Shown here: positions 2,222 through 5,106 of the stretch, piece by piece
Position numbering within the stretch: position 1 is the first letter of the stretch
Layout: every line of letters starts with the position of its first letter
NCBI GenBank assembly: GCA_000004695.1
Contig: CM000151.3
Coordinates: 8,032,001 to 8,096,000 of the forward strand
Direction: 5' to 3'
DNA length: 64,000 nt
DNA from: Dictyostelium discoideum
Lineage: Eukaryota
Translations under genes and position numbers: made by a program
Notes under the pieces: generated by a model
What the model was told of the DNA's origin: nothing
What the model saw: the letters and a program-made list of their open reading frames with translations, nothing else
Database searches by the model: none

Positions 2222-2262
2222 AAGTTGGATTGGACACTTTAGAGAAATTACACATTTTAATA
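2222..2262 (+). pseudogene. Short internal hpd fragment, a copy of hpd about 1785-1815, embedded in the hpd 3' flank
   Basis: The string ggattggacactttagagaaattacacattttaat nearly duplicates the hpd coding sequence gatttggacactttagagaaattacacattttaat. Confidence 0.5.
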
Positions 2263-2297
2263 AGTTATAATATTTTATTAATTATTTATTTGTTTAT

Positions 2298-3225
2298 TTA
2301 TAATAATTTAATGAAATCAAATGTTTGAACATCGTTAGTATTGGTTACAGATTTGAAAGTGATAACGATATTACCAGATTCAAATGACCATGACCAATGA
2401 GCGTTCAAGTTAGCATCATGTTTAATGACGATTGTATGATTTGTAGTTGCTTCTTGAACTGCTTCTAAGATCATTTCATCAGCACAACGTTTGGCAAGAT
2501 TAGCAGCGACCTTTTCGACGATACCAGCAAAGATATGACCAAAACTATTCTTTAAATCATCTGCAACTTTTGGATAAACAGTTTCTAATGATGATTCATC
2601 AATTGACCAATCTGATGATGATTTTAATGCTTTTTTAACTGCTGATAAATTATCTTTCATTTTTTGTTCATTTGTTTTAATATTTAAACGAGTCATTAAA
2701 GTATAAACACCTTGAGTTGGAATAATAGTCTCTAATTTGAATGTGTTAACATCATTTGTGTTACAAATCTTTGGACGGAATAAAACTCTACAATCACCAT
2801 TCTCAAATTGATATTTCCAATAGGATTCCAACTTTTCATCAGCACAAACAAAAACGAATTTCTTATTTGGAACAGCTGCTAAAAATGCTTCTTTAATTAA
2901 TGGATCTGCACCGACTTTTACCATATTCTTTGCAAGATTACCAACTACATCTTTGTAAAAGATACTTCCACAACTATTAGTAACCCATGAATCATTACAT
3001 TTAGTAATAATATCTTCAAAATCAAATTCAATTGAAAATGGTTCACCTAATGATTTTTCGATTGATGCTAAATTAGTTTTTAAAGATTCTTCATTATCTT
3101 TTAATGATTTTCTATAAATATTATAAATTTAATTATTAATTAATATTTATATTAATTATTAAATGGAATATAATTATTATTATTTTTATTATTTATATTT
3201 ACCTTGAGGTTAAGGCGAGAGGCAT
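2298..3225 (-). CDS. 278-aa two-domain paralog, copy 1. Structure is complement(join(2298..3111,3203..3225)).
   Basis: Exon 1 is ATGCCTCTCGCCTTAACCTCAAG followed by gt. A 91-nt intron ends in tatag. Exon 2 encodes KSLKDNEESLKTNLASIEKSLGEPFS... through ...FDFIKLL. The ORF track begins later only because TTA replaces the TTG start used in the other copies. Hand translation gives an uninterrupted frame. Confidence 0.75.
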
Positions 3226-3901
3226 TTTAAAAGTTTTTTTTTTATTAATATTGAAATATTATTTAGTTTAAGGTTTTTGTTTTGAATTATTTGGTAATAA
3301 AAAAAAAAAAAAAAAAATATTCACATTTTTATACTTAAAAAATAGAAAAAAATTAGATTAAAAAAATCCAGAAATATTTAAAAATATTAAATAAAAAATA
3401 TAATTATGAATTTTAAGAATGTAATTGGAATAGTTTTTTTTTTTTTTTAAAAAAATATCTTGTTTTTTTGTTTTAAAAAAAAAAAAAATATTTTAATTTG
3501 TATTTTTTTATTTTTTTTTTTTTTTTTTGGATCGGGTATCTTTAAAAAAAAAAAAAATTGATAATAAGATAATTTTTAAATTTTAATTTATTTTGTTACG
3601 AAATGAATTAAATTCATTATATATATAAATGTGTATTTTTTTTTTTTTTATTATTTATTTTAATTATTTGAATATAATGAGTTTAAAATAAACTATGGTT
3701 TGCCATATCGAAGTTTATTAAAAAATAAAAAAAGACTTAAAAAATTAAATTTGAAAAATAATAAAAAATAATAACAATTCCGTCCATTCAATTAAAAAAA
3801 AAAAAAAGATATGAATAGATATAGATAATTTAAAAAACTAAATTAAAATGTGAAATTTTATTTTTAAATGATTAATTTAAATTATTTTCTTTTATCTAGA
3901 A

Positions 3902-4020
3902 ATTGTCCAAAGAAACAATCATGATGGTTTCGGTGGTTGTAACTATAAGTCTCTCTTTGAGAAAATCGAGGAAAGTTATAATAAATTACAATCATGGTCT
4001 CAATTACAAAAGTTCCTTAT
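3902..4020 (+). pseudogene. 3'-terminal hpd fragment, about the last 100 coding nt plus stop, diverged. It marks a segmental duplication breakpoint.
   Basis: aaattgtccaaagaaacaatcatgatggtttcggtggttgtaactataagtctctctttgag... aligns with hpd 1890-1990 (gaaattatccaaagaaacaaccatgatggtttcggtgctggtaactttaaatccctctttgaagc...). The next 160 nt align with the hpd 3'UTR. Confidence 0.7.
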
Positions 4021-4178
4021 TATTGGTTGAATATCAATATAAATTAATACTCTATTTAAAAATAATTTTTTAATAGTAAACTAACAAAAAAAAAATCAAA
4101 AAACAATCACCTTTTTATACTTTTAATTTCTTCTTTATTTTTTAACAATGTGTTTAATAATATTAGTAGCTTTTTTAT

Positions 4179-5106
4179 TTATAATAATTTAATGAAATCA
4201 AATGTTTGAACATCGTTAGTATTGGTTACAGATTTGAAAGTGATAACGATATTACCAGATTCAAATGACCATGACCAATGAGCATTCAAGTTAGCATCAT
4301 GTTTAATTACGATTGTATGATTTGTAGTTGCTTCTTGAACTGCTTCTAAGATCATTTCATCAGCACAACGTTTGGCGAGATTTGCAGCGACCTTTTCGAC
4401 GATACCAGCAAAGATATGACCAAAACTATTCTTTAAGTCGTCAGCAACTTTTGGATAAACAGTTTCTAATGATGATTCATCAATTGACCAATCTGATGAT
4501 GATTTTAATGCTTTTTTAACTGCTGATAAATTATCTTTCATTTTTTGTTCATTTGTTTTAATATTTAAACGAGTCATTAAAGTATAAACACCTTGAGATG
4601 GAATGATTGTTTCTAATTTGAATGTGTTAACATCATTTGTGTTACAAATCTTTGGACGGAATAAAATTCTACAATCACCATTCTCAAATTGATATTTCCA
4701 ATAGGATTCCAACTTTTCATCAGCACAAACAAAAACGAATTTCTTATTTGGAACAGCTGCTAAAAATGCTTCTTTAACTAATGAATCTGCACCGACTTTT
4801 ACCATATTCTTTGCAAGATTACCAACTACATCTTTATAAAAGATACTTCCACAACTATTAGTAACCCATGAATCGTTACATTTAGTAATAATATCTTCAA
4901 AATCAAATTCAATTGAAAATGGTTCACCCAATGATTTTTCGATTGATGCTAAATTAGTTTTTAAAGATTCTTCATTATCTTTTAATGATTTTCTAAAAAT
5001 AAAATAAAATAAATTATTAATTAAAATTTATATTAATTATTAAATGAAGCATTATTATTATTATTTTTATTATTTATATTTACCTTGAGGTTAAGGCGAG
5101 AGGCAT
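4179..5106 (-). CDS. 278-aa two-domain paralog, copy 2. Structure is complement(join(4179..4992,5084..5106)).
   Basis: Same two-exon structure as copy 1: MPLALTSR, intron, KSLKDNEESLK..., with the track ORF 4179..4931. It carries the inner-copy variants SLVKEAF and IIPSQGVY. Confidence 0.8.

Follow-up and report, generated by a model that had tools for sequence, protein, structure and literature searches.

A putative tandem-duplication scar derived from hpd and a cytochrome P450 gene in a structurally polymorphic cluster of Dictyostelium discoideum

On chromosome 2 of Dictyostelium discoideum, sequence resembling the 3' end of hpd recurs downstream of hpd itself, among copies of another gene. 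How did these fragments arise, and do they record the order in which the locus was assembled? The original prediction was that they mark the breakpoints of a tandem duplication with a boundary inside hpd, and that their absence from a second, oppositely oriented group of gene copies dates an inversion relative to that duplication. The answer developed here keeps the duplication and abandons the dating.

We analyzed a 64 kb window of AX4 chromosome 2, with a G+C content of ~22%; 'the window' refers to this whole stretch of DNA. Genes within it are ordered hpd(+), X-L1(-), X-L2(-), P450(-), RCC1-BTB(-), a 563-aa ORF(+), FNIP(-), X-R1/R2/R3(+), and ATG2(-), where 'X' is an orphan 278-aa gene with two exons that is present in five copies. 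The following features (window coordinates) define the locus:

217 to 219, plus strand: hpd exon 1, which is the ATG; the hpd intron follows at 220 to 889
890 to 1989, plus strand: hpd (4-hydroxyphenylpyruvate dioxygenase) exon 2, with a Pfam Glyoxalase/HPPD match and a protein that clusters with AX4 Q76NV5
1889 to 2190, plus strand: parent segment of the diverged hpd copy, comprising the last 33 hpd codons, the stop, and ~200 nt of 3' flank
2297 to 3225, minus strand: X copy L1, DDB_G0277417-type, 278 aa, two exons
4178 to 5106, minus strand: X copy L2, DDB_G0277415-type
5641 to 7302, minus strand: cytochrome P450 gene, the last six codons and stop of which (5641 to 5660) correspond to the other end of the putative duplicated unit
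5641 to 15222: central P450 / RCC1-BTB / Ank-like / FNIP block, inverted together with X copies in the assemblies ACTFIR, ACTFIW, and ACTFIZ
15664 to 20121, plus strand: right-arm array of R1 (15664 to 16590), R2 (17469 to 18399), and R3 (19193 to 20121), with 'short' spacers

To our knowledge, X is a Dictyostelid orphan that lacks a recognisable fold, and no Pfam family matched it. Its proteins cluster with those of AX4 chromosome 2 genes DDB_G0277415/417, which adjoin hpd, and DDB_G0277421/423/425. X copies across the two AX4 arms are 94–99% identical, the closest pair being L2 and R2 (99%). A tblastn impression that R1 is intronless was rejected, as a reading of the sequence gives a normal exon 1 and intron. 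X also occurs at loci unrelated to this one: beside calreticulin (L001) and in a second D. discoideum cluster (L004).

Our literature search found no papers naming DDB_G0277415, 17, 21, 23, or 25. The study that produced the wild-strain assemblies focuses on the tgr locus, where it treats rearrangements; the present locus is not mentioned in those of its passages that were searched (PMC12745789). The locus has apparently not been described before, though this kind of feature is well understood and all of the mechanisms discussed below are well known.

The hpd-derived sequence between L1 and L2

The L1–L2 spacer (3226–4177) consists of two parts: an X 5' flank on the left and a diverged hpd copy, which we term psi-hpd, on the right. 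Its features are as follows:

3226 to 3898: L1 5' flank (the 'C' part of the spacer), the far end of which (3794 to 3898) is a copy of 5554 to 5660, where the 3' flank and last codons of P450 lie
3898/3899: junction between the P450-end copy (psi-P450) and the start of psi-hpd, with ~16 nt of imperfect T-rich microhomology in a three-way comparison
3899 to 3991, plus strand: psi-hpd coding remnant, 84% identical to hpd over 77 aligned bases, with a 9-nt deletion and no start codon
3992 to 4165, plus strand: psi-hpd 3'-flank remnant, 85% identical to 1990 to 2190 at aligned positions

Local alignment pairs 1881–2190 with 3890–4165, and a blastn search of the first 22 kb matched 1889–2190 to 3899–4165 with 72% identity over 303 columns (E 1.85e-43). 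To allow for the AT-rich composition, we established an empirical null, in which hpd 1881–1989 was scored against each 300-nt window across the whole 64 kb and in both strands. The hpd coding end scored 52 at psi-hpd, as compared to 17 at the next-best window and a median of 10. The alignment of 3902–4020 to hpd 1890–1990, on which the original prediction hinged, is therefore highly significant, and the diverged hpd 3' end that it had placed at 3902–4178 is real, with edges that were right to within a few bases. That prediction also had the copy retaining its stop. The last codons and 3' flank are indeed present, but the stop has been lost through a change of TAG to CAA at 3989–3991. Judged by its sequence, psi-hpd appears to be an inert, truncated, and decaying scar that is non-functional.

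Two trivial sources of such fragments were set aside. Chance likeness in AT-rich DNA was rejected by the empirical null for psi-hpd and by shuffled sequences for a second, 32-nt piece of hpd described in the following section. An assembly artefact was rejected for both fragments, as each is reproduced at 100% identity in an independent AX4-type long-read assembly (L013, GCA_054883475.1).

Consistent with a tandem-duplication junction, each side of the boundary between 3898 and 3899 matches a native flank. On the left, 3794–3898 is 85% identical to 5554–5660 over 108 columns (E 3e-26), a target that abuts P450 and includes its last six codons and stop. The same left-hand sequence also has counterparts in ACTFIR (L010, 5998–6067) and ACTFIY (L011, 16140–16759), again in the flank next to P450 and in its terminal codons. 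On the right, homology switches at 3899 to hpd codon 335 (base 1889) and is then colinear through the hpd 3' flank into X-L2. The expectation that the boundary of the tandem unit would fall inside hpd exon 2 is borne out by this switch; hpd homology begins exactly where P450-flank homology stops. An imperfect T-rich stretch is common to both parents at the crossover (TTTTCTTTGAAATTAT in hpd and TTTTTTCTAAATTAAT on the P450 side).

The two copies of the unit are also colinear in head-to-tail order: 1889–2190 corresponds to 3899–4165, 2290–3557 to 4171–5420, and 3794–3898 to 5554–5660. Each runs from hpd codon 335 to the P450 end and contains one X, and the unit of about 2.0 kb is 2010 nt long in the first copy and 1762 nt long in the second.

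These observations suggest the following origin. An ancestor would have carried the genes in the order hpd(+) – X(-) – P450(-), and illegitimate recombination at the short T-rich microhomology would have tandemly duplicated a segment of ~2.0 kb. This segment would have extended from hpd codon 335 to a point among the final six codons of P450, equivalent to base 5660. At the new 3898|3899 junction, the copied end of P450 would have met the copied 3' end of hpd, and the truncated hpd copy, which lacked a start codon, would then have decayed.

Could psi-hpd instead be a 5'-truncated processed retrocopy of the hpd mRNA that inserted into an existing spacer? A coding 3' end followed by 3' UTR is the part that such a retrocopy keeps. 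However, homology extends ~200 nt past the stop and does not end with psi-hpd but takes in the shared 3' flank and then X, arranged as in the genomic hpd–L1 interval, which points to a duplication at the DNA level. Furthermore, the A-run at 4086–4095 is templated by a genomic A-run at 2104–2121 and is no poly(A) tail, target-site duplications are absent, and the left edge of psi-hpd is the end of the P450-flank homology. A retrocopy is thus extremely improbable.

A second possibility is a larger duplication, with a whole second hpd (or more) later deleted down to its 3' end. Deletions are known in these spacers – ACTFIY has an internal deletion in psi-hpd, and a shorter spacer type occurs in both arms – but no other hpd-like sequence was found in the spacer or elsewhere in the window. 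Moreover, the start of hpd homology at the end of P450-flank homology, with parental microhomology, has the look of a primary junction, and a secondary deletion landing at that very point would be a coincidence. We consider this larger event very unlikely and retain the direct junction of codon 335 to the P450 end as the preferred reading.

A separate hpd-derived patch 3' of L1

The second fragment of hpd has a different character. Its features are as follows:

1784 to 1815, plus strand: source of the patch in the hpd coding sequence
2226 to 2263, plus strand: hpd-derived patch, with an exact match at 2230 to 2261, replacing ~15 nt present in other strains

All 32 nucleotides of 2230–2261 are identical to 1784–1815 by blastn. 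A 30-mer from the patch has exactly two occurrences in the window, as compared to 0 expected from 100 dinucleotide shuffles with three mismatches allowed. The orthologous site lacks the patch in four assemblies of D. discoideum or D. cf. discoideum (L008, L009, L011, and L012), while L013 contains it; the source 32-mer is single-copy in L008 and L009. Where other strains read ...TATAAGTT TATAACAATTTAAAA TTTAATAA..., AX4 reads ...TATAAGTT GGATTGGACACTTTAGAGAAATTACACA TTTTAATAA.... Microhomology with the source is found at both edges (TTTAAT on the right and AAG/TT, in the form AAG..TT, on the left), which is short, AT-rich, and weak evidence when taken alone.

The patch lies inside the duplicated unit, is 100% identical to its source (as compared to 72–85% for psi-hpd), and is missing from four other assemblies, which argues that it is recent and separate from the duplication. 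The fragment predicted at 2222–2262 is therefore real, as an exact match of 32 nt, but marks no duplication breakpoint. Its assignment to the hpd 3' UTR also needs amendment. Although the patch does lie 3' of hpd, it is 36 nt beyond the stop of L1 on the opposite strand and past several AATAAA motifs, and is thus more likely to be in or just past the L1 3' UTR.

The patch is best read as a templated insertion confined to the AX4 lineage and recent in origin, which would have arisen through break-repair fill-in or a replication template switch, apart from the duplication junction. A break 3' of L1 may have been repaired with 29–34 nt of filler from hpd coding sequence 446 nt upstream, with ~15 nt replaced. 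If transcribed with L1, the patch would be antisense to the hpd mRNA; we rate any function as unlikely.

Spacers, inversions, and copy number in the two arms

Both right-arm spacers match the left spacer over 3475/3634–3846 and again from 4028/4072 to 4177, with a gap of ~200 nt that removes psi-hpd. Such short spacers occur twice in the AX4 right arm, three times in L008, once in L009, and three times in L010, with homology stopping at ~3846–3875 and resuming at ~4039–4083. In a gap-tolerant alignment the short type equals the long spacer minus 3876–4076, as illustrated by the region of the R1–R2 spacer that corresponds to the junction:

16609 to 16925, minus strand: junction region of the R1–R2 spacer, homologous to 3634 to 3875 and 4077 to 4177 and without 3876 to 4076 (the psi-P450 end and psi-hpd)

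The 201 nt missing from the short type are flanked by TTTTTAAATGAT (3864–3875) and TTTTTTAATAGT (4065–4076). The short spacer may thus have formed by a ~201 nt deletion between these imperfect direct repeats, though it counts against this step that the proposed repeat is short, imperfect, and AT-rich. The long spacer is not derivable from the short one in a single step, because the extra sequence is native to both parental flanks, while the reverse change takes one deletion. One ACTFIY spacer, between copies 1 and 2, matches neither type, which also counts against the proposed derivation.

The claim that the right arm lacks the hpd fragments is correct in part. Neither the hpd coding remnant nor the 32-mer was found there, but the distal ~95–115 nt of the same intergenic segment are present: hpd–X intergenic sequence 2078–2190 recurs 3' of R1 (16723–16609, 77% identity, E 1.7e-18) and 2106–2190 recurs 3' of R2 (18500–18418, 79%). 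The outer flanks of the right array lack such flank-derived parts, with homology stopping ~340 nt out upstream of R1 (15324) and ~20 nt past the stop 3' of R3 (20141). Since the P450- and hpd-flank parts are missing from its outer ends, we infer by parsimony that the right-arm units formed in the hpd/P450 context and then moved.

The orientation of the locus differs among strains. In ACTFIR the order is hpd, two X copies, FNIP(+), Ank(-), RCC1-BTB(+), P450(+), four X copies, and ATG2. Window segments 6704–13769 and 13877–18429 align to this assembly in reverse, the hpd and ATG2 flanks align forward, and the breakpoints fall within X copies. In three of six assemblies (ACTFIR, ACTFIW, and ACTFIZ), the segment enclosed by the hpd and ATG2 flanks, which holds the X arrays and the P450–FNIP block, is inverted, and gene order in L008, L012, and L014 agrees with the inversion. 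The AX4 reference, L013, and ACTFIY have the other orientation, as do D. firmibasis and D. citrinum. These orientation calls are drawn from assemblies, among them those of PRJNA1300491.

Copy number varies as well, with one to four X copies per arm. Left-to-right counts are 2:3 in AX4, 2:4 in ACTFIR, and 1:2 in ACTFIZ, where the right pair is convergent; the left arm has four copies in ACTFIW and three in ACTFIY. Short spacers without psi-hpd also occur in left arms (L008 and L009), and in ACTFIZ, where the locus is inverted, a search for psi-hpd on the side nearest P450 (the right) returned only low-complexity matches.

The simplest reading of these patterns is recombination between inverted X copies together with unequal crossing-over. 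Oppositely oriented X copies would have recombined, repeatedly flipping the intervening segment and carrying short-spacer units to both arms, and unequal crossing-over within the arrays would have altered copy number. The difference in orientation between two D. cf. discoideum strains, ACTFIY and ACTFIZ, suggests more than one flip.

As arms exchange units, the absence of psi-hpd from the AX4 right arm says nothing about the order of events. The dating of the inversion relative to the tandem step accordingly fails: arms are swapped in half of the assemblies, copy number changes from arm to arm, and short spacers are found on the left too. The fuller chronology in which that dating was embedded holds that the right arm arose first as an inverted copy, that the left-arm tandem followed with its hpd boundary, and that the right array formed independently. 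It draws support from the right arm's lack of the hpd coding remnant and 32-mer, and from D. dimigraforme, in which an inverted single X pair around the P450...FNIP block indicates that some inverted arrangement probably predates the tandem step. Against it, the right-arm spacers carry sequence like 3634–3846/3875 and 4077–4177, which outside spacers is found only beside P450 and hpd. Because the outer flanks of the right array lack these parts, an independent duplication would need them to have been present and then lost at both ends. In addition, arms have been swapped between strains and both arms share the deletion junction. This chronology is therefore improbable. We favor an account that combines the duplication scar and the spacer deletion with inversions, unequal crossing-over, and a separate AX4 patch, and regard it as a whole as likely to be right.

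A more speculative extension casts the hpd–ATG2 interval as a flip-flop hotspot, in which inverted X arrays flip a four-gene block of ~10 kb and trade units. This might have phenotypic effects by changing the dosage of X or the regulatory surroundings of P450 and hpd, and the AX4 patch, by placing in the L1 3' UTR a sequence perfectly antisense to hpd mRNA, might feed RNAi. While the structural polymorphism itself is well supported, its functional consequence is pure conjecture, and we rate the proposal as a whole as very unlikely.

Probable age of the proposed duplication and comparison with known systems

Related species constrain the age of the scar. In D. firmibasis, hpd and P450 converge across a gap of 167 nt that contains no X, which implies that the relative orientation of the two genes in AX4 is ancestral and that X came between them later. 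D. citrinum has hpd, an FNIP gene, one X, and P450, and no psi-hpd was found there. X is absent at this locus in D. purpureum. In D. dimigraforme (L002/L003), the P450...FNIP block is flanked on either side by one or a few X copies in inverted orientation, and hpd is absent from the surrounding 10 kb.

Within the discoideum group, psi-hpd was found in two of six assemblies, AX4 and ACTFIY (D. cf. discoideum); reading the whole ACTFIR locus revealed none. The ACTFIY copy lies 3' of the P450-proximal X copy, has an internal deletion, and has derived states in common with the AX4 copy (ATGGTCTC; TCCTTATTATTGG). Non-coding identity is 85% between psi-hpd and its parent, as compared to 95–96% between AX4 and D. 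cf. discoideum and 79% between AX4 and D. citrinum. Taken with the species distribution, these values place the duplication, on sequence grounds, between two splits, that from D. citrinum and the later one between AX4 and 'D. cf. discoideum'. Several points count against the favored account. Only two of the six assemblies retain psi-hpd. The AX4 and ACTFIY psi-hpd copies share just 85% identity, as compared to 96% for the real 3' flanks; such low identity implies relaxed constraint, deep paralogy, or a noisy alignment of AT-rich sequence. The assignment of 2097–2190 to native hpd flank or to X flank is also weakly resolved, with a D. citrinum alignment score of 59 as compared to a null maximum of 49.

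The scar serves as a polarity marker for a small, fast-changing cluster. It indicates that the tandem unit arose in the interval from hpd to P450, oriented as in AX4, and that the units on the far side originated there too. The locus provides a clean example, from a compact protist genome, of microhomology-associated duplication, short-repeat deletion, and inverted-repeat inversion with copy-number change. It also carries a warning that 'arm-specific' features cannot order events where arms recombine. These results are ordinary genome archaeology; they bear neither on what hpd does nor on open questions in the field.

Each component has known counterparts. Like the truncated-gene relics at junctions of tandem segmental duplications, psi-hpd is a decaying, start-less fragment at a head-to-tail junction that joins a distal flank to a proximal one at microhomology. 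It differs from typical relics in that the breakpoints lie in the last codons of two convergent neighbours and most units have since lost the junction by deletion; it is otherwise of the same kind. The patch resembles templated insertions at repaired breaks, with filler identical to nearby same-strand sequence (446 nt away), edge microhomology, and a small deletion in the recipient. Its sequence signature suggests microhomology-mediated end joining or replication template switching.

The inversions have a parallel in humans, where recurrent polymorphic inversions mediated by inverted repeats have been genotyped (PMC3961182). As in those cases, inverted repeats bracket the segment, both orientations occur in natural isolates, breakpoints fall in the repeats, and the arms are highly similar (94–99% identical here). 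In contrast to the human inversions, the Dictyostelium repeats are short tandem arrays, with one to four units of ~1.8 kb that each carry an orphan gene, so that flips redistribute units and spacers, and recurrence is suggested by the distribution of orientations among strains, ACTFIY as compared to ACTFIZ.

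Breakpoints of the tandem unit

The segment that carries copies of gene X, a 278-aa orphan gene, is flanked on the left by the 4-hydroxyphenylpyruvate dioxygenase gene hpd. At the end of the spacer between the two left-arm X copies, L1 and L2 (3874-3898), we also found a copy of the final six P450 codons with their stop (5641-5660). Each breakpoint of the tandem unit therefore lies in the 3' end of a neighbouring gene.

The unit also contains a 32-nt patch (2230-2261) identical to hpd coding sequence. The - strand of this patch would provide a perfect antisense match to the hpd mRNA if the L1 transcript ran 36-70 nt beyond its stop codon. 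Several AATAAA motifs lie ahead of the patch.

Other repeats were observed in the window:
42559-43204 and 44517-45195: a further tandem pair, period ~1.96-1.99 kb, identity 95-99%
48017-48973 and 59108-60073: a direct repeat spaced 11.1 kb, identity ~97%
26195-26440 and 35241-35416: two simple-repeat tracts of 9- or 12-nt periodicity with long inverted matches to each other, probably coding low-complexity repeats

The gene X protein

The protein (2297-3225 and paralogues; DDB_G0277415-425 family) is restricted to dictyostelids. Its structure is confidently predicted to comprise two domains, and comparison with solved structures and Pfam returned no significant match in either.

Inversion and X arrangement across genomes

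Of the six discoideum-group assemblies, three (ACTFIR, L009+L010; ACTFIW, L008; ACTFIZ, L012+L014) have the P450/RCC1-BTB/Ank/FNIP block and X copies (5641-20121) in inverted orientation, and each arm carries one to four X copies in this group. In ACTFIY, the spacer between copies 1 and 2 (L011 12500-13212) is neither the long type, which carries the hpd-derived remnant, nor the short; on the side next to X it is similar to the L1/outer-copy flank.

An FNIP-repeat gene sits between hpd and the single X of D. citrinum (L005 11884-13239); tblastn against the AX4 FNIP gene (13819-15222) gave no match at E <= 1e-20 with aligned length > 150 aa. In ACTFIZ (L014 10001-12467) and D. dimigraforme (L002 10001-13181), a second, convergent X follows the P450-side X, an arrangement unlike the tandem arrays of AX4.
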